Source: an uncultured virus (IMG/VR IMGVR_UViG_3300021085_002396)
Taxonomy: Duplodnaviria > Heunggongvirae > Uroviricota > Caudoviricetes
Direction: 5' to 3' (one strand)
Length of the DNA stretch: 64,000 nucleotides
Virus record (IMG/VR): IMGVR_UViG_3300021085_002396
Below, piece by piece: positions 485 to 56,763 of the stretch. Position 1 is the first letter of the stretch. Each line of letters opens with the position of its first letter. A model generated the notes under the pieces. That model searched no databases. It saw only the letters and a list, made by a program, of their open reading frames with translations, and was not told the origin of the DNA. The translations under genes were made by a program, and so were the position numbers.

Positions 485-1033
485 TCAAAGCCCCATCCTT
501 TGAGTGATAAGTCTATCTTCATCTTTAACTAATTTAAATTGTTTATACATACTATAATCTTCTTCATTGGCTTTGTAACCCCAATGTAGTAATGACTGTT
601 GTATCCTTGGTGATATACTCCAATCATCTTCTTGTTCTATTCTCTTATATAATCTATTACGCCATCTACCATTAGTACCTGCAAAGTCTTGCCATCTTCT
701 TATCTGCCTATCATCGTCCTCTCCTCTGATGCCCATACTATACTTACAATACCATTCAAACCAACCATATGGATCTCTCTCATGCATCCAATTCATCTCC
801 TTCCAATACTCATAATCCATACCCGATCTTATCTTGTACTTATTCATACGAGGTTTATATGTCTCTCCTAAGTATAAGCTTGTATCTAAGCCCTTAAAAT
901 GATAATCAAATAACTCACTATACTCATAATTACTATACTCCTCTATAGGCAATCCGAAGTAACAACCACCAAAGGCTCCTTCTTCTACGATCTCTCTTGG
1001 AGTTAATATAGGATAGAATGCTAAGTTACTCAT
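485..1033 (-). CDS. Conserved hypothetical protein (DPYGWFEWYC..GxRxxDDxRQIxRW family)
   Basis: 182 aa ORF with a W/Y-rich motif I recognise from uncharacterised viral and eukaryotic proteins. Confidence 0.75.
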   Translation of the reverse strand: MSNLAFYPILTPREIVEEGAFGGCYFGLPIEEYSNYEYSELFDYHFKGLDTSLYLGETYKPRMNKYKIRSGMDYEYWKEMNWMHERDPYGWFEWYCKYSMGIRGEDDDRQIRRWQDFAGTNGRWRNRLYKRIEQEDDWSISPRIQQSLLHWGYKANEEDYSMYKQFKLVKDEDRLITQRMGL

Positions 1034-1206
1034 ACAAATAAACTTATTATAAGATAAAATAAAGCTACTACTATGACTGAGACTATAGTCAACCCAATGA
1101 CTTTATAGTTATTCTCTACTTGACGCTTAGTCCTTCCTTGATGTAGAGTAGTATCCCACTCCTTAGTCCTTGCATCTAACATAGTATATTTCTTCTTTTT
1201 CTTCAT
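1030..1206 (-). CDS. Small C-terminally anchored membrane protein (58 aa, not in ORF track)
   Basis: MKKRRKYTML...VIGLTIVSVIVVALFYLIISLFV; ATGA overlap with the next gene. Confidence 0.7.
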   Translation of the reverse strand: MKKKKKYTMLDARTKEWDTTLHQGRTKRQVENNYKVIGLTIVSVIVVALFYLIISLFV

Positions 1207-1216
1207 ATTACTTTTT

Positions 1217-1280
1217 TAAATTCGCGCGTGGCTCCTTCGGAGGAGAGAGAGAAACGCCCCCTCACCCCCTCGCCATGCTT
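1217..1280 (-). repeat. Dispersed GC-rich structured element, copy 2
   Basis: Nearly identical to 48367-48434; starts immediately after the stop of 1282..1791. Confidence 0.9.
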
Positions 1281-1281
1281 A

Positions 1282-1791
1282 TTATGCAAACAAACTTAAT
1301 TGCTTAGCTTCCGTTCTTTTAGACTTCAATTGGAATACACTAGTTACTTTTCTAGTAGGTCTAAACTTCTCATCAGCATTATCAATCAACGTACCATCCT
1401 TTATAGTAAAGGCATGACCTGCTACTCCAACAATATAAGTCCCTTTAGGATTATCTTTAATGAATGACTTAACAGTCTTCTGACGGTAAACCATCTCTCC
1501 ATATAACTTATACCCATTAGTAATTCTCATCTTGTTAAGAACTTTAAAGTCAAAGTCTTTATTACCTATACTTAAACCTTTATCTTCAAGAGGATTTATT
1601 GTAGCGCCAGTAAAGTATACACCCTTACCGTTTGCTCTTCCGAAATAATCTTTAGTGAATTTATGAGCAACGTCATAATTAACTTCTGTAGCTGATGCTA
1701 AAGCTCTAACGAAACAATCGTTCTTCTCGCCCTTAGCTAACTCAGAACCATAACCCTTAATACTTGTACTTGATCTTTTAAAATTTACCAT
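1282..1791 (-). CDS. Hypothetical protein, possible papain/transglutaminase-like Cys-His-Asp fold
   Basis: NDCFVRAL and GHAFTIKDG..ID motifs; AAAGGTTATG start context. Confidence 0.55.
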   Translation of the reverse strand: MVNFKRSSTSIKGYGSELAKGEKNDCFVRALASATEVNYDVAHKFTKDYFGRANGKGVYFTGATINPLEDKGLSIGNKDFDFKVLNKMRITNGYKLYGEMVYRQKTVKSFIKDNPKGTYIVGVAGHAFTIKDGTLIDNADEKFRPTRKVTSVFQLKSKRTEAKQLSLFA

Positions 1792-1814
1792 AACCTTTAT
1801 TTGTTTTAATATTA

Positions 1815-1852
1815 TACCTTAATATATGAATAATATATCAGACGAGCAACTA
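1815..1852 (-). promoter_or_regulatory. Bacteroidota-type promoter (class 1)
   Basis: Minus strand TAGTTGC-N-TATATTAAG; motif recurs across the window. Confidence 0.75.
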
Positions 1853-1866
1853 GTTACATAGTTATT

Positions 1867-2022
1867 TTACCAGTTTTTTATAATATTAGCTACAATCAAA
1901 GCATTACATATTACTGCCTGGAGTATAATTAATGTTCTCAGTATAGCTATTTTATCTGCTTCACTTGTTGGACCTATCTTTTCTCCCAAAGCTCTCGCCC
2001 ATAATCTCCATGCTCTACGCAT
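1867..2022 (-). CDS. Small phage membrane protein (51 aa, not in ORF track)
   Basis: MRRAWRLWARALGEK..EADKIAILRT..IVANIIKNW, a common small phage family; overlaps the upstream stop. Confidence 0.8.
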   Translation of the reverse strand: MRRAWRLWARALGEKIGPTSEADKIAILRTLIILQAVICNALIVANIIKNW

Positions 2023-2230
2023 ACTTAGTTATTTTATGCTTCTTCATATACTTTTCTATAAAGTACTCCCCCCATCCTAAATCATGTACAACAATATCTT
2101 TATCAAGAAGCTTTGATCTGGAGCTATTAACTTGATCTATGTACCTTACATTCCGGAAGACTTTCATATACTTTTTGAAGCCTTTACCTTTTGTGTAGAC
2201 TACTACGATTGGTATAATTTTAGAGGGCAT
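2015..2230 (-). CDS. Hypothetical protein
   Basis: 71 aa ORF overlapping both neighbours. Confidence 0.7.
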   Translation of the reverse strand: MPSKIIPIVVVYTKGKGFKKYMKVFRNVRYIDQVNSSRSKLLDKDIVVHDLGWGEYFIEKYMKKHKITKYA

Positions 2231-2453
2231 GTTTTATAGTCTCAGTTTTAAACTCAGTTCTTAAAAACTCTAATAAGCATCCTTGAAAGTCTGTATCTCG
2301 ATCAGCAATCTCATTCCAATCTATAAAGAACCATTCAATTAACGCATCCATATACGTTGGTTCTAAGTCAGGAGTCTTTTCATTATTAAGCTGCATCATA
2401 TGTACAGTATCAATAATCTCTTGCATTACATAATCTTTACTTAAATATTTCAT
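2220..2453 (-). CDS. Hypothetical protein (77 aa; start reassigned to MKYLSK)
   Basis: ATG at 2453 has the AAAGGTTATG context; the longer ORF would run through the tRNA. Confidence 0.75.
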   Translation of the reverse strand: MKYLSKDYVMQEIIDTVHMMQLNNEKTPDLEPTYMDALIEWFFIDWNEIADRDTDFQGCLLEFLRTEFKTETIKHAL

Positions 2454-2470
2454 AACCTTTATTAATTTAG

Positions 2471-2543
2471 TTGCGCTGGGAGGATTCGAACCTCCGACCT
2501 TTGGGTTATGAGCCCAACGAGCTGGCCACTGCTCTACAGCGCT
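2471..2543 (-). tRNA. Initiator tRNA-fMet (CAT)
   Basis: AGCGCTG TA GAGC..GCTC G TTGGG CTCATAA CCCAA AGGTC GGAGG TTCGAAT CCTCC CAGCGCA A; unpaired 1:72 and three G-C pairs closing the anticodon stem; CCA not encoded. Confidence 0.95.
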
Positions 2544-2549
2544 ATAAGA

Positions 2550-2831
2550 TGGAGTTAGGGTGGGTGTTAGGTATCCTCTCTGTGAAAATAGTTTCGCCCG
2601 GAATGGACTTGGTACCTCGCTGTCTTCACACAGCTTATTTTCTTCCCCTTTTAAAGTGATCAAAATTTACACTCCCAATGTCGAGCCTCAGTCTTTAGTT
2701 CCTTTTCCTTTCCCTCTATAACCGGCGGTAGTCAGTACTAAGCTTTCAACTTCTAGCGAGCTCTTGATATCATCTCATCGCGTCGGCCTCTCTTTAACGG
2801 ATCAATCTTTCAGATCCAACACTTTCCTCCA
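2550..2831 (-). ncRNA. Candidate ~280 nt structured ncRNA upstream of the tRNA
   Basis: GC-enriched, no convincing ORF; 5' TGGAG..GTGTTGG pairs with 3' CTAACAC..CTCCA; several internal hairpins. Confidence 0.6.
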
Positions 2832-2834
2832 ATA

Positions 2835-2846
2835 TGTTAAAGAACG
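2835..2846 (-). promoter_or_regulatory. boxA-like antitermination site
   Basis: CGTTCTTTAACA resembles rrn boxA TGCTCTTTAACA and lies directly before the RNA genes. Confidence 0.6.
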
Positions 2847-2852
2847 TTGCTA

Positions 2853-3092
2853 CTAAAATGGTAGCGGTTCATCTTTTTCTTTCTCGATAGGTCTAGATTT
2901 ATCATCTAGTTTTCTATATGAAAGTGAAGCAAATGGTTGCTCACCTATCTCTATTACATTAGCTCTAGCATTAACATGCTTAGCATCTATCTCTTCAGCA
3001 TACTCATGAGCTTTTTTACGAGCCATATAATCATTGTCTGCATGAATGTACAAATCTATCTGTACTGAATATCTTTTTTTATCTCTAGCCAT
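2853..3092 (-). CDS. Hypothetical protein
   Basis: 79 aa ORF ending in DEPLPF, an SSB-tail-like acidic-PF end. Confidence 0.7.
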   Translation of the reverse strand: MARDKKRYSVQIDLYIHADNDYMARKKAHEYAEEIDAKHVNARANVIEIGEQPFASLSYRKLDDKSRPIEKEKDEPLPF

Positions 3093-3280
3093 TACTTATA
3101 TACTTTAGTTACTACATCCTCTCCATCGAATAATATCGTAATACCATCTGATTCAACAACGTACTTATTCATTCCGTTATAAGCGTGAAGGGTACAATCA
3201 GCTTGAACTGTATCACCATTCTCTGTTAAGCCTTCCATCTGGAAGATCTGACCTACTTTTAAATCTTTAATCTGTATCAT
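3092..3280 (-). CDS. Hypothetical protein
   Basis: 62 aa ORF behind a promoter/leader cassette. Confidence 0.75.
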   Translation of the reverse strand: MIQIKDLKVGQIFQMEGLTENGDTVQADCTLHAYNGMNKYVVESDGITILFDGEDVVTKVYK

Positions 3281-3342
3281 AACCTTTATTTTACCTTTTT
3301 AATTATACTTAAATATAAGAAGAAATACTCAGGGAGGCAACT
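3278..3342 (-). promoter_or_regulatory. Promoter plus leader cassette, copy 1 of 3
   Basis: Plus strand CATAACCTTTATTTTACCTTTTTAATTATAC..AATATA.GAA...GGCAACT, shared with 7262-7327 and 15877-15942. Confidence 0.85.
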
Positions 3343-3363
3343 CCTCCCCAAGTTATTTTTAAT

Positions 3364-3504
3364 TTATTCTTGGTCGGTTAAATTTTTATTATATACTAAG
3401 TTGTAAATATCGTCGGCGAATTCGGGTGTAATCGAATTAGATTCTAATAGAGATTGAATAGTTTTTTTAATGTTGTCGTCGGTGTGATAGATAGGTTGAA
3501 TCAT
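3364..3504 (-). CDS. Small hypothetical protein (46 aa, not in ORF track)
   Basis: MIQPIYHTDD...NLTDQE fills the gap downstream of a promoter motif near 3557-3594. Confidence 0.6.
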   Translation of the reverse strand: MIQPIYHTDDNIKKTIQSLLESNSITPEFADDIYNLVYNKNLTDQE

Positions 3505-3603
3505 AGTAGAAATAAATTAAATTAATTATAAAGAGAGTATATCTCTCTTTCTTTAATACTTAAAGATATGAAAAATAACAATAAGAACCTACTAGTTACT
3601 AAG

Positions 3604-3972
3604 TTATTTTACTGACTCTTTCCAGAAAGCCTGTACAAATAATACTGCAAAACAAAGTAATAATTGAAATGCTATCTTCATAGTAAACTTCTCCTGAAAG
3701 AATATTTGGATCATAATAGCATATATAATCATTCCTATAGCAAAGCCTACAAATCTAGCTCCCCAGATACTTCCTCCATATCCTTCAACATTGTACTTAG
3801 TCGCAAGAATAAATACATAAGTTAGAGGAACAGATAAAGCATACATACCCCACCATTTCTCATCGTACTCAGGATACTTAAACTGTAAGTTATGTTGAAA
3901 CCAAGCTCCAATTTGAGCAACTATAGTTACAAGTGCTCCTAATAGTATATAATACCAATTTAAATCTTTCAT
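3604..3972 (-). CDS. Four-TM membrane protein
   Basis: Four hydrophobic segments, SMR/DMT-like size. Confidence 0.75.
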   Translation of the reverse strand: MKDLNWYYILLGALVTIVAQIGAWFQHNLQFKYPEYDEKWWGMYALSVPLTYVFILATKYNVEGYGGSIWGARFVGFAIGMIIYAIMIQIFFQEKFTMKIAFQLLLCFAVLFVQAFWKESVK

Positions 3973-4187
3973 ACTTCTAGTAGTACGCTTTTCTCTGCGT
4001 GTTTAATTAGTAACCTCTGGTACATTCTATGTATGCTATCATCTGCTGTAAAAACATCTTTAGTGTTTACTGAATAGAATTTAAAGAAGTTATTAATGTA
4101 GTTCTTAGCTCCATCTAACTGAGTATGATTCTCACATGAATCTACTACCTTTAAAGCTTTCTTATATGTAGTAAATGAATTTATCAT
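3969..4187 (-). CDS. Hypothetical protein (start reassigned to MINSFT)
   Basis: ATGA overlap with the 4184..4369 stop. Confidence 0.7.
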   Translation of the reverse strand: MINSFTTYKKALKVVDSCENHTQLDGAKNYINNFFKFYSVNTKDVFTADDSIHRMYQRLLIKHAEKSVLLEV

Positions 4188-4369
4188 GATATGCCCTTTA
4201 AAAATTCCCATATGAATGTTCCTAGACTTATTGGCCATAGTAAAGAATGAAATAATCGTTCTCGCCATACCCAAGGTCGTCCTAGAAAGCCATCTATTTG
4301 ATTTGTTGTATAATACTCTAACCATGCTGCCCATATTACTCCTATTATTATATATAATCCTAGTGTCAT
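4184..4369 (-). CDS. Small two-TM membrane protein
   Basis: Hydrophobic helices, LLWP motif. Confidence 0.75.
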   Translation of the reverse strand: MTLGLYIIIGVIWAAWLEYYTTNQIDGFLGRPWVWRERLFHSLLWPISLGTFIWEFLKGIS

Positions 4370-5670
4370 TAATTCTTATATTTTAAGTTAAACTGTCCGT
4401 TATCCTGCTGTTCATAGTATATACCTCTCACAGAGTTAAAGTCTACAAAGCTAGCTGCGTTAAGCTTATCGCTTTCCGGAATTATATCTAGTAAACAATC
4501 TCCGTTTACATCATAGATCGTACTCTTATGAGGCCATATAAATGTCCCTAAGCCTATTATGTTAGGAGACTCTAATGCCTGGTCTTGATACCAATTAAAT
4601 CCTTCTCCTTTAAGTATTTGAACTTTAATACCATCGTAGTATTCATTATCTACTAATTCAAATTGTACTCCATCTCTTCCAGTAGTTCTAGTAATAATAA
4701 TTTCTACATTACCATCTCGATCAATATCGTAGATATCAAAGTCTGTAATTACACCCCAGTTTAATATCTGAGGGAGTATAATTGGGTTATCTACATCGAA
4801 CTGTCCTGGACCTAATCCTCTAAGTATATGAGTCTGCCATACTACTTTACGTAATGAAGTAGCCATCCAATCTTCTTCCCATTCGTGCCCACCTAGTATT
4901 AAATCTAGAATTCCATCTTTATCGAAATCATATAATTCACTATGAAAAGTTCGAGCTACATGATGAGTAGTTATGTTAGAATCACTATTAGTCCATACTT
5001 CACTAGTTCCGCTAGATTGTAAAAGGTTAACATACCCGTTACTACCATTAGTAAAAGCTTGAGAGTTAATCTCTAAAATCTCTGCATTTCCATTTGTTAC
5101 TCCATACGCTCCTGTATGGTAATATCCGCTGATGCTTCCTATTTCCTGTACCCTATAGCTACCAGAAGCATACATATAGATCACAGTAGTAATATCTCCT
5201 GATGATTGTGCAGTATCAGGTCCTGTTCCAAATAGAATTATATCATCTATACCATCTTGATTTAGATCTTCTGTAACTACCTTCCTAGTTTTTAGTTGAG
5301 GACTTGGTATTGCTATTACTATAACATCATCTACTACTATAACTACTTCACCCCTAGGAGGATTTTCTATATTAGTTCCTCCTTCTGTTACGATTACATA
5401 ATCAGACGTATCGTTATTATTAAAATTACCAAATGCAGACCATAAAGTAAATTGTCCAAATCTAGGTAAGTTAACATTTAACTTCTTAGCAGTATCAACA
5501 AAAGGAATATCCCAATGAAGGTAATCTGTTTCACAATCAGTAGCAGAAGGTATCTGTACATCTACTACTAACTCACAGTTACAGGGTTGTACTGGAGCAA
5601 TAGGTTCCATAGGTTCCTTCTGACATCCTATTATAAGAAGTCCGAGTATTATGTATCTATTGATTCTCAC
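4369..5670 (-). CDS. FG-GAP/VCBS repeat lipoprotein
   Basis: Lipobox-like LLIIGC; repeats DLNQDGIDDII, DFDKDGILDLI, DIDRDGNVEII, DVNGDCLLDII; GTG start chosen. Confidence 0.85.
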   Translation of the reverse strand: MRINRYIILGLLIIGCQKEPMEPIAPVQPCNCELVVDVQIPSATDCETDYLHWDIPFVDTAKKLNVNLPRFGQFTLWSAFGNFNNNDTSDYVIVTEGGTNIENPPRGEVVIVVDDVIVIAIPSPQLKTRKVVTEDLNQDGIDDIILFGTGPDTAQSSGDITTVIYMYASGSYRVQEIGSISGYYHTGAYGVTNGNAEILEINSQAFTNGSNGYVNLLQSSGTSEVWTNSDSNITTHHVARTFHSELYDFDKDGILDLILGGHEWEEDWMATSLRKVVWQTHILRGLGPGQFDVDNPIILPQILNWGVITDFDIYDIDRDGNVEIIITRTTGRDGVQFELVDNEYYDGIKVQILKGEGFNWYQDQALESPNIIGLGTFIWPHKSTIYDVNGDCLLDIIPESDKLNAASFVDFNSVRGIYYEQQDNGQFNLKYKN

Positions 5671-5821
5671 AATTATCTTTATGTTTAAACCATCCACCAC
5701 ATTTACATTTAATGTAATGTACAGCAGTAAGAAAGATGGGAGAGCCGGCCAACAAGGTTATGACGTTTGGATGCCAATGCTCTCCACAAATTCCTAATGT
5801 ATGTTTTATTATTTCAATCAT
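5657..5821 (-). CDS. Small His/Cys-rich protein (54 aa, not in ORF track)
   Basis: MIEIIKHTLGICGEHWHPN...CKCGGWFKHKDNC fills the gap exactly. Confidence 0.7.
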   Translation of the reverse strand: MIEIIKHTLGICGEHWHPNVITLLAGSPIFLTAVHYIKCKCGGWFKHKDNCENQ

Positions 5822-5825
5822 ATTA

Positions 5826-6062
5826 TTATCTATTTACTTTATGAAGGTTGGAACCCCAACCAGTTCTTACATCCATAGCAGCTATCTCTTTAGCTACATT
5901 AGGATCTTTTATTACTTCAGTTTCAGCATACTCAGTCTTCCCAGATATAATATTTCTAACGTACCATCTAGAAGTACTAGAGCAGTTTACACAGGTCTTA
6001 GTTCCTGGTAATGCTTTTAATCTCAAAGGATTAATCTCGTTACAACATTTACTACAGTCCAT
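5826..6062 (-). CDS. DksA/TraR-type C4 zinc finger protein
   Basis: CSKC.NEINPLRLKALPGTKTCVNC. Confidence 0.85.
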   Translation of the reverse strand: MDCSKCCNEINPLRLKALPGTKTCVNCSSTSRWYVRNIISGKTEYAETEVIKDPNVAKEIAAMDVRTGWGSNLHKVNR

Positions 6063-6453
6063 CTTTAACTTCTTTTATATGCTTACACTTCTTATGACCT
6101 ATATACCCCCAGCAATCACAGCTTAAGTTACCAGCTGCATTATATCTAACAGTATATTCTTTATCGCTTGAAGCAGACTTAAATGACCACTTTTGATCGT
6201 TTCTCTCTTCTACGAATAGCTCTTCAAAAGGTTTCTTATCTACTAAGATATCATCTAAGGTAGCTTTTTCGTGAACCTCTATCCAAGAAGGAGTATGAAA
6301 TCTACCGGTAGGTAAATTTACTAACCCACCTTTACCTACATTAGTAAAGGGTACTTTATAATAGTGGCGAGTAGCCCATCCACTCTCAGGATTCGAAATG
6401 GATAGGGCACCGTCAGAGTAGACTATCTCACCGTTATAGTTCCATAGAGCCAT
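6052..6453 (-). CDS. SWIM zinc finger protein
   Basis: YTV...SCDCWGY....CKH motif. Confidence 0.85.
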   Translation of the reverse strand: MALWNYNGEIVYSDGALSISNPESGWATRHYYKVPFTNVGKGGLVNLPTGRFHTPSWIEVHEKATLDDILVDKKPFEELFVEERNDQKWSFKSASSDKEYTVRYNAAGNLSCDCWGYIGHKKCKHIKEVKDGL

Positions 6454-6454
6454 A

Positions 6455-7264
6455 TTACTTACTATCAGCAGTTAATACATAATCTCTATATTGCCAAAGT
6501 AGATTCTCTACATTAGTCATTCTTACCTTTTCATAAACTCTAGGAGTTTCTCCGTAGGTAGCAATTTCAACATCAGCTGACTTACCAGAGGCAGTCTTGC
6601 TAATTATTTTAGCAGATGATATACCTCTCAAAGTCCAATCCCATCTTAAATCCATAGAACCTTTCTTCTGACCGTCAAACTTTAAACCTTTTTTAGATTC
6701 TAAAAGCTTCTCAGCAGTATCTAAGTAAGAGTTATTCTTTTCATCTCTAAGTTTCTGAATATCAGCTTCTAAAGTTCTTACTTCTTGGTACTTAGTATCA
6801 TACTCATCCTTATAAGAATCAGTTTTACTATCCATCTCAGCAATAATATCATCTTGAAAGTCTTGAATAACAGAAGCAACTTTACCTAGAACGGCAAATC
6901 TTTCTAACTCCCAAGGACCTCCAGCAGAAGTACTATAAGTAGAAATTCTCATAGAAGCCTTTTCACCTTTCTCTTCTCTCCAAGACCAAGGTCTTTCAAT
7001 TCTAATAGTACCTAACTCTTTATCATAAGAATAATCTTCATGAGGTCTTAAGATCTCAAAACTAGAATCTCCATCGTATTTAGGCTTAAGAATATAAGCA
7101 TCACTAGAGTATTCAGTATTTAATTCACCACCGAAGTATTTTTGAATAACAGAGAAATAAGAATCTCTTCTATCATCTCTAACCTTAAGAGCTTTCTTCT
7201 TAGCTTTAGATAATAGTTCTTGCTTTTTAGCAATAATCTCGTCAATAATTTCAATTTTTGTCAT
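6455..7264 (-). CDS. Hypothetical coiled-coil protein
   Basis: 269 aa ORF behind a promoter cassette. Confidence 0.8.
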   Translation of the reverse strand: MTKIEIIDEIIAKKQELLSKAKKKALKVRDDRRDSYFSVIQKYFGGELNTEYSSDAYILKPKYDGDSSFEILRPHEDYSYDKELGTIRIERPWSWREEKGEKASMRISTYSTSAGGPWELERFAVLGKVASVIQDFQDDIIAEMDSKTDSYKDEYDTKYQEVRTLEADIQKLRDEKNNSYLDTAEKLLESKKGLKFDGQKKGSMDLRWDWTLRGISSAKIISKTASGKSADVEIATYGETPRVYEKVRMTNVENLLWQYRDYVLTADSK

Positions 7265-48051: not shown

Positions 48052-48141
48052 TCCACTCTTCATTGAAGTAAGTAAATTCTGTCATATTAATAAATATAAG
48101 AATTAAACTTTTTATAAGCAACAATATGGCCATATATCTCC

Positions 48142-48168
48142 AATAAAAAACCCGGCACGTCTGCCGGG
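48142..48168 (-). terminator. Intrinsic terminator
   Basis: CCCGGCA-GACG-TGCCGGG-TTTTTTATT. Confidence 0.9.
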
Positions 48169-48290
48169 CTTATACTGTTAAGAAGTGTACTGCAACCGGA
48201 TGCATTTAAGATTACCGGAAATTTCTTTTACGCTATTGGGGTACTTGACGCCGGACTACTCCTTACCGACTTTCTTACCTTAACTAATTT
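48142..48290 (-). ncRNA. Candidate standalone ~150 nt small RNA
   Basis: Own promoter (48292-48327) and terminator; only an 11-codon ORF inside. Confidence 0.6.
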
Positions 48291-56196: not shown

Positions 56197-56763
56197 TCAG
56201 AATGCCAAGAAAGTACCTATATCTTTTTCTGATAATTTAATCTGATGAACTTTTTCTAGTTCATTAATTACTGCTTGTTTTGTAGGTATGTCGCCATTAA
56301 AATAAGTCCATACTAAGCTCTGATGTATAGTGTTTATTTTATTAGATAAAGAGTTTATCCTAGCTTCTATTAATTTAGAATCTGACTCTACCAATTTTAC
56401 TTTAACGTTATACTTAACAGCAAATTTAATAAGCTCTATTACATCTCTTTCTTCGTATGCTTTTTTTAACTCATTAAAGTCATCTACAGTTCCTCCTTTG
56501 TCTGGGTGAGCATGCTTACTAAGTCTTTTATAAAGTTTTCTTAATCTTGGATCTGCTTCTGGTTTAGATTCTTTATCAGGTTTTTCCTCTCTAATCTCAC
56601 CAGTTTCTTCATCAACCCACATAACCTTTTGTTTGTCCATTAAGTACTTACCGATAATGCTATTCCACTTATCAAGATACTCGTCTAGTTGTTCTTGATT
56701 TTCTTCGAGTTCTAATCTTAAGAACTCATACTTATGTGAAATTTTGGCAAGTGATTTGTCCAT
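56197..56763 (-). CDS. J-domain protein
   Basis: KLYKRLSK.AHPDKGG...F..L..AY. Confidence 0.85.
   Translation of the reverse strand: MDKSLAKISHKYEFLRLELEENQEQLDEYLDKWNSIIGKYLMDKQKVMWVDEETGEIREEKPDKESKPEADPRLRKLYKRLSKHAHPDKGGTVDDFNELKKAYEERDVIELIKFAVKYNVKVKLVESDSKLIEARINSLSNKINTIHQSLVWTYFNGDIPTKQAVINELEKVHQIKLSEKDIGTFLAF

Follow-up and report, generated by a model that had tools for sequence, protein, structure and literature searches.

A probably new orphan RNA of about 283 nt beside the initiator tRNA of an uncultured phage

A stretch of about 283 nt in the genome of an uncultured phage (IMG/VR IMGVR_UViG_3300021085_002396) occurs in RNA libraries as a separate piece, one end of which lies shortly before the initiator tRNA. 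We consider this element likely to be a discrete non-coding RNA, because contigs from RNA libraries end at 2548-2551, because its conservation exceeds that of synonymous sites and because its ends pair. That reading is strengthened by the layout of a phage tmRNA (L189), by the presence of GOLLD or of a family that we call family A in the same slot of other phages, and by a relative (L292) that has the tRNA without the RNA. It is weakened by the existence of two sequences only, an MFE z-score of about +1 and a boxA-like site that is not enriched elsewhere. The original prediction of a non-coding RNA at this position is supported by conservation relative to the variant L361, by RNA contigs bounded at the element and by the lack of a conserved reading frame between the two sequences. 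The element probably represents a new orphan RNA of phages, though its general kind is known.

The genome record is a single virus contig (113,071 bp, 68% complete, 33.6% GC), of which a window of 64,000 nt was analyzed; positions refer to this window. In the window the long ORFs lie on the minus strand; among their products are GroEL, GTP cyclohydrolases and a family A DNA polymerase. Over its whole length this polymerase shares 60% identity with its counterpart in Flavobacterium phage vB_FspM_immuto_2-6A, and we infer a flavobacterial host. Sequencing runs containing the genome's DNA are labeled marine, seawater, estuary or viral metagenome.

Locus anatomy and RNA-library contigs

The locus extends on the minus strand from a terminator-like hairpin to the tRNA:

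3353-3327, minus strand: terminator-like hairpin, upstream of the promoter-like motif
3302..3320, minus strand: promoter-like motif, from sequence; unchanged in L361, with like motifs at other intergenic sites
3092..3280, minus strand: 62-aa ORF, function unassigned, upstream in the putative operon; PHROG search negative
2853..3092, minus strand: 79-aa ORF, function unassigned, on the same RNA-library contig as the element (X15, 2548-3120)
2849..2865, minus strand: short hairpin spanning the stop of the ORF, immediately 5' of boxA; unchanged in L361
2835..2846, minus strand: boxA-like site CGTTCTTTAACA, 10/12 identical to the E. coli consensus
2548..2830, minus strand: ncRNA element, ~283 nt, from RNA contigs and conservation relative to L361
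2816..2830, minus strand: 5' strands of predicted end helices P1 (2830-2827) and P2 (2822-2816), from pair probability and chance tests
2702..2789, minus strand: variable domain with 9 of the element's 10 changes, holding the second UGAAA (2748-2744)
2548..2701, minus strand: strongly conserved 3' half with predicted hairpins 2634-2619 and 2590-2572
2551..2570, minus strand: 3' strands of P2 (2570-2564) and P1 (2554-2551); RNA contigs end 0-3 nt past P1
2470..2543, minus strand: initiator-type tRNA-Met(CAT), from ARAGORN and Rfam RF00005 (66.7 bits)

The precursor transcript would start at the promoter-like motif near 3320, judging from its sequence; a sigma-70 scan was at chance level (8 sites found, 8.3 expected). 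Homologues of the 62-aa ORF in related phages are 40-66% identical, and those of the 79-aa ORF are 44-58% identical, the latter at loci without a match to the element. More broadly, small ORFs around the element (window 485-7264) recur in shuffled order in relatives L122, L125, L128, L140 and L082; those flanking the element here lie side by side in L122 and L125, without an RNA between them.

The tRNA at 2543-2470, one of two on the whole contig (Ala and Met(CAT)), lies 6 nt from the element as originally described. It has a 1:72 mismatch and a GGG/CCC anticodon stem, and CCA is not encoded; from these features, read off the sequence, we take it to be of the initiator type. The hairpin at 2849..2865 stands in what we assume to be a boxB-like position. 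The boxA-like site matches the E. coli consensus UGCUCUUUAACA, as quoted in a portion of PMC13753749, at 10/12 positions here and at 9/12 in L361 (one change). The exact 12-mer occurs once in the genome, with 0.007 occurrences expected per strand.

The element is 44.7% GC in a genome of 33.6% GC, placing it in the top 0.5% of windows, and together with the tRNA it has the highest GC among the 14 ORF-free gaps found in the genome. Another GC-enriched gap without an ORF, at 48134-48283 on the minus strand (150 nt, GC 0.43), ends in a terminator-like hairpin and U-run and is a small-RNA candidate with a negative Rfam scan. Stop codons occur in all three minus-strand frames of the element, except in the 3' part of one frame, and further on this frame is broken in L361.

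In six RNA runs, the fraction of sampled sequence words of 2400-2900 present was 0.46-0.67, vs 0.83-1.00 in 14 DNA runs, among which four are possible sources. Contigs were mapped on 1500-4000 for RNA runs only, namely four of the six, from four studies (X15, X16, X18 and X20). The X15 contig (2548-3120) has no other letters, carries sequencing adapter joined at 2548 and joins the element to the upstream 79-aa ORF. The X16 contig (2548-2951) comes from a relative, its nine listed differences all falling in the upstream ORF. X18 and X20 yielded stand-alone contigs of 277 nt (2551-2827) and 273 nt (2549-2821), with next to no contig cover over neighboring genes, although absent cover does not prove the flanks silent. 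In all four runs the contigs end at 2548-2551, 4-7 nt before the tRNA and 0-3 nt past the terminal stem; in two of them (X18 and X20) the contig also ends near the other side of that stem. Contigs give neither strand, abundance nor true ends, and their ends are a weak hint; the RNA would derive from the minus strand, because the tRNA and boxA lie there.

Conservation, distribution and predicted fold

A metagenome scan returned 88 matches, and the element is found in two of these, L318, whose record equals this genome in length, and L361, the sole variant. The L361 contig is 94.5% identical over 1.37 kb and has a different gene after the tRNA. Within the element, 10/283 positions differ from L361, vs 27/153 synonymous sites in four upstream ORFs (p = 1e-6); the tRNA differs at 2/74, a similar rate. 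The changes are unevenly placed, with 1/154 in the 3' half (2548..2701; p = 3e-8 against synonymous sites), none in the first 41 nt and 9/88 in the middle (2702..2789), which is indistinguishable from synonymous sites (p = 0.14). Synonymous changes in the adjacent ORFs number 7/46 and 5/38. A recent module exchange could mimic the high identity of the element, since one nearby ORF shows only 1/26 synonymous changes and the gene after the tRNA has been replaced in L361.

We rejected about half of the 88 matches as homologues. In about half of L317-L404 (e.g. L322, L341 and L355), the query 17-mer sits within an unrelated recurring sequence that looks non-coding, with a GC hairpin and an AT-rich tract, and is often near contig ends; it is possibly the genome end or origin of another phage group.

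Further scans found no other copy. Homologues numbered 0/27 loci in a 15-mer scan of viral contigs, 0/13 and 0/23 for boxA-to-tRNA spacing patterns, 0/100 for loci reached by way of two proteins, a core one (best 80 of 594) and a neighbor (20), 0 among the 125 loci listed in tRNA-anchored scans and 0/5 matches in GTDB genomes; a scan through the upstream ORF gave no relative. By blast, the element is absent from 47 related-phage records (five of them at least 90% complete), which contain only 14-22-nt matches; 8/14 were inspected and judged to be chance. Blast of 50 further whole records (of 82) gave one 23-nt match only, blastn of the element with 50,697 phage records yielded nothing longer than matches of 24-30 nt, in three records, and GenBank phages and plasmids gave short matches only. 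A two-sequence covariance model found one 13-bit match in 50 records, which failed a recheck, and in 91 sources scored only both training sequences. Distant homologues may be missed because all scans need exact short words. A search of open-access papers found no description of this RNA, and six short motifs of the element are absent from six supplement files, a part of the supplement, of PMC10690425, a viral structured-RNA catalogue whose candidates are, in the portion available, at most 151 nt long.

The boxA-like site and every pairing and hairpin string of the original prediction are present on the minus strand, including TGGAG (2831-2827) with CTCCA (2554-2550) and GTGTTGG (2822-2816) with CTAACAC (2570-2564). 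The proposal that the ends pair holds in part. The end-to-end duplex (-13.8 kcal/mol) was equalled in 84/2000 shuffles, but the inner 7-bp helix has a probability of 0.0 in the predicted ensemble. For segments chosen post hoc, CUAACAC found a 7-bp partner (P2) in the first 20 nt in 1/2000 shuffles, and the exact ends formed four Watson–Crick pairs (P1) in 87/2000. The end pairing is modestly better than chance. Among the internal hairpins proposed, GCTGT-GTGAAG-ACAGC (2634-2619) is, with P1 (pair probability 0.99), predicted to be near-certain (~1.0), but both UGAAA hairpins fall away, with probabilities near zero (AAGT/GCTT 0.02, GATC/GATT 0.01). Two UGAAA motifs arise in 21% of shuffles and the best short hairpin is equalled in 32%, neither being above chance, and the AAGT/GCTT hairpin, which carries the second UGAAA, loses 2/4 pairs in L361.

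The MFE of the whole RNA is no better than that of shuffles (z = +1.2; 88/100 shuffles as good), and its z-score (~+1) is worse than those of 8/8 control RNAs. This does not exclude structure, because the GOLLD controls also fold weakly relative to shuffles (z -0.07 to -1.5). For covariation, suggested at the outset as a check, the score from the two distinct sequences includes one double-sided change and was matched or exceeded in 267/500 shuffles. Covariation cannot be shown from two distinct sequences; the 5' strands of P1 and P2 are identical in both and so carry no such signal, and in the one A-U to C-G double change relative to L361, position 2740 has two possible partners. The changes in L361 fit the consensus fold no better than random placement (75/200), and a 3' pseudoknot partner is at chance level (555/1000 shuffles). 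The internal fold is putative. In the predicted boxA-RNA-tRNA precursor, boxA pairs with the 5' end of the element and P1 is absent. Complementarity between the element and the tRNA reaches no more than 6 nt, and a search of the contig for antisense targets gave none save one 13-nt match.

RNAs beside the initiator tRNA in other phages

No Rfam family matches the element at the gathering score or at E <= 10, only the tRNA being matched, in agreement with the earlier statement that no family could be assigned. The accompanying remark that large phage ncRNAs adjoin tRNAs also proved apt, since GOLLD (in L158 and L179) and tmRNA (in L189) fill the slot before tRNA-iMet in other phages by Rfam. 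A census by motif of 98 distinct tRNA-iMet loci counted six with GOLLD-type ends (Rfam-confirmed for 2/6), and eight with family A just upstream; a T-arm lies just upstream in 23, and the remaining 61 show none of these features. In L292, a complete relative, a similar tRNA-iMet lies directly behind a promoter-like motif without such an RNA.

Like the element, GOLLD (RF02032) and ROOL are large phage RNAs near tRNA islands, with no function assigned in the available part of PMC12286853. GOLLD in L158 ends ~10 nt before tRNA-iMet, much as the element adjoins its tRNA; GOLLD shares its A-rich make-up and weak MFE signal, and GOLLD and ROOL, like the element, have a conserved 3' part and a more variable 5' part. 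The differences are nonetheless substantial. The element is ~283 nt long, whereas, according to portions of PMC12286853, many GOLLD RNAs exceed 800 nt and the solved ROOL is 659 nt. The GOLLD covariance model, of the conserved 3' domain, scores 243-310 bits on L036, L158 and L179 but gives the element no match at E <= 10, and neither does the Rfam model of the ~600-nt ROOL. GOLLD and ROOL form homo-oligomeric cages and have a covarying multi-pseudoknot fold, whereas the element is known from two sequences. RNAC and RNAD of phage T4 are likewise small and stable and come from the tRNA region of a phage, no role being assigned to them in the parts of PMC3014915 and PMC9697503 at hand, but they belong to another phage group and host phylum, and the likeness is one of description.

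The L189 tmRNA (RF00023) shares with the element a boxA-like site, ATATT, a GG.G start, a CTCCA end and a short spacer before tRNA-iMet. The tRNA-like domain of tmRNA consists of a 7-bp acceptor with G3.U70 and a T-arm. The element, in contrast, lacks a T-arm, has A3-U where tmRNA has G3.U and closes its ends with a stem of 4 bp instead of 7 bp; no tag frame was found in it, and ARAGORN and Rfam were negative for tmRNA. As for an RT-associated ncRNA of the retron or DRT type, PF00078 is absent from the 113-kb contig (68% complete), and the neighbors are 62-79-aa ORFs. By analogy, the element would work like GOLLD, ROOL and T4 RNAC while probably being a member of none.

Family A is an uncatalogued RNA of 110-215 nt that precedes tRNA-iMet in marine phages. 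Its ends pair, its core is conserved, and it contains two variable inserts as well as a pseudoknot:

L178, 661-770, plus strand: family A member
L212, 925-1127, minus strand: family A member
L217, 621-776, plus strand: family A member
L272, 1095-1218, minus strand: family A member
L283, 1047-1231, minus strand: family A member
L299, 830-995, plus strand: family A member
L301, 778-990, plus strand: family A member
L302, 1202-1354 and 1048-1191, minus strand: family A members
L311, 1045-1210, minus strand: family A member

For family A, 99/99 cells pair and 5/11 pairs change on both sides, and 0/500 shuffles score as high; the members scanned have no Rfam match. The element resembles family A in its paired ends and in its marine phage setting, family A mostly ending a few bases before tRNA-iMet. 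A pseudoknot with the topology of that in family A can be drawn in the element, but at chance level, whereas that of family A covaries, and the family A profile found no match in this genome at E <= 10.

About 400 nt 5' of tRNA-iMet in related 60-70-kb marine phages, we also observed arrays of small stem-closed RNA modules, some of them nested (L276, L277, L279, L286, L289, L290, L296, L312, L170, L175, L187, L156 and L173). Some array RNAs have only a tmRNA-like acceptor and T-arm, with partial RF00023 matches of 33-38 bits (L156, L170 and L173). BoxA-like sites precede tRNA clusters in 3/10 regions from relatives, and a loose boxA is not enriched upstream of tRNA-iMet loci (7/96, vs 8 on the opposite strand). 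In L437, L438 and L439 (relatives G033, G015 and G014), a boxA-like site lies between tRNA-like RNAs with enlarged anticodon arms and a tRNA cluster; other phages (L447, L455, L462 and L464) have structured-looking stretches flanked by a boxA-like site and tRNA-Met.

The slot before phage tRNA-iMet thus houses several unrelated stable RNAs, including a second uncatalogued family that covaries, and gives a simple way to mine phages for further RNAs and to test for one shared role. Orphan RNAs beside phage tRNAs, namely GOLLD, ROOL and T4 RNAC and RNAD, have no assigned function as far as the available portions of PMC12286853, PMC3014915 and PMC9697503 extend. The small size of the present element would make probing and structural study easy; it is found in sea-water RNA as a separate piece, and its phage has a cultured relative in Flavobacterium phage immuto_2-6A.

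Proposed processing route and competing explanations

On balance we lean, by a modest degree, toward a scheme in which a stable untranslated RNA of ~283 nt uses the initiator tRNA as a processing handle. The element would be transcribed in one piece with the upstream small ORFs, a step partly shown by the X15 contig. BoxA, whose role in antitermination is described in parts of PMC13753749 and PMC10250234, would load the host NusB-S10 antitermination complex. Some 370 nt of untranslated RNA would then escape Rho and fold. RNase P cleavage, exonuclease trimming and endonuclease cutting are established RNA-processing steps. Here, host RNase P would cut at the 5' end of the tRNA, as the contig ends suggest, 3' exonucleases would shorten the RNA until its end lay no more than 3 nt from the terminal GGAG/CUCC stem, and the 5' end would be freed by an endonuclease cutting the AU-rich linker that follows boxA. 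During infection the freed RNA may have a trans-acting role, its fold serving to bind host proteins of translation or RNA decay as a scaffold or decoy; we put this role forward tentatively, by analogy, and what the free RNA does is the least supported part of the mechanism. Proposals of the scaffold or decoy type exist for GOLLD and ROOL in portions of PMC12286853 and PMC12990946. The element would be accessory, the tRNA being made without need of it.

The 280-mer could instead be the stable by-product of a folded leader acting in cis, which together with boxA would cause antitermination or set the timing of maturation for tRNA-iMet and the downstream genes. The hairpin and boxA directly 5' and the tRNA directly 3' fit such a leader, as do the boxA-like sites ahead of tRNA clusters in relatives (3/10 regions) and the predicted precursor, with boxA paired to the 5' end of the RNA and P1 unformed. 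We nevertheless judge this unlikely, for L292 has the tRNA without such a leader, the slot elsewhere holds known trans-acting or free RNAs, and the piece persists in RNA libraries where its flanks do not. Decayed or passenger sequence, a remnant of a tmRNA-like RNA, intron or gene kept by recent spread whose ends pair by accident, would account for the lack of a folding signal and of covariation, the very narrow distribution (2/88 metagenome matches) and the tmRNA-like first and last bases. It is hard to square with 1/154 changes in the 3' half against 7/46 and 5/38 synonymous changes in the adjacent ORFs, with the high GC in an AT-rich genome or with the lack of similarity to phage tmRNAs under a covariance model, and we think it quite improbable.

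More speculative is a derived RNase-P-like RNA, in which the 5' GAGGAAAGU and a 3' CUUAU would form a P4-type helix with a bulged U and the RNA would cut itself off the tRNA or mimic RNase P RNA. GAGGAAAGU at 2829-2821 is identical over 9 nt to the RNase P conserved region I motif, with divergence thereafter; it arises in only 82/20000 shuffles of the element, though it was noticed after the fact, and the bases immediately ahead of the tRNA allow a helix of 7/8 pairs with the bulged U to be drawn. This helix is nonetheless calculated at +1.6 kcal/mol, vs -11.1 for the competing P1 and P2, the Rfam RNase P models give no match at E <= 10, P1/P2/P3 of RNase P are absent ahead of the motif, and the RNA contigs end short of the helix's last bases, so that we regard the idea as highly unlikely. 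Equally far-fetched would be its extension to an RNA with a P4 core of the RNase P type, catalytic or a mimic, tethered 2 nt from the 5' end of tRNA-iMet, that cuts itself loose by a switch from the precursor fold and is one of several interchangeable cassettes for stable RNAs placed by marine phages ahead of tRNA-iMet. A small-protein gene is the least credible alternative. A 147-codon TTG frame (2663-2220) and a short plus-strand frame do exist, the latter (53 codons) still open in L361, which is uninformative because the L361 DNA is near-identical there. The 147-codon frame, however, crosses the tRNA, stops early in L361 and has protein homologues whose matches extend over no more than 75 residues, which is as long as the ORF downstream of the tRNA, and the plus-strand frame opposes the surrounding gene direction.

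The 10-mer AAAGGTTATG occurs ten times on the coding strand of the whole contig and not at all on the opposite strand, with minus-strand sites in the window at 56629, 17041, 16915, 15886, 7271, 3287, 2460 and 1798 and two more beyond it. The copies inspected are at gene starts, one of them immediately past the tRNA-Met, and the 10-mer is likely a translation-start or recombination motif.
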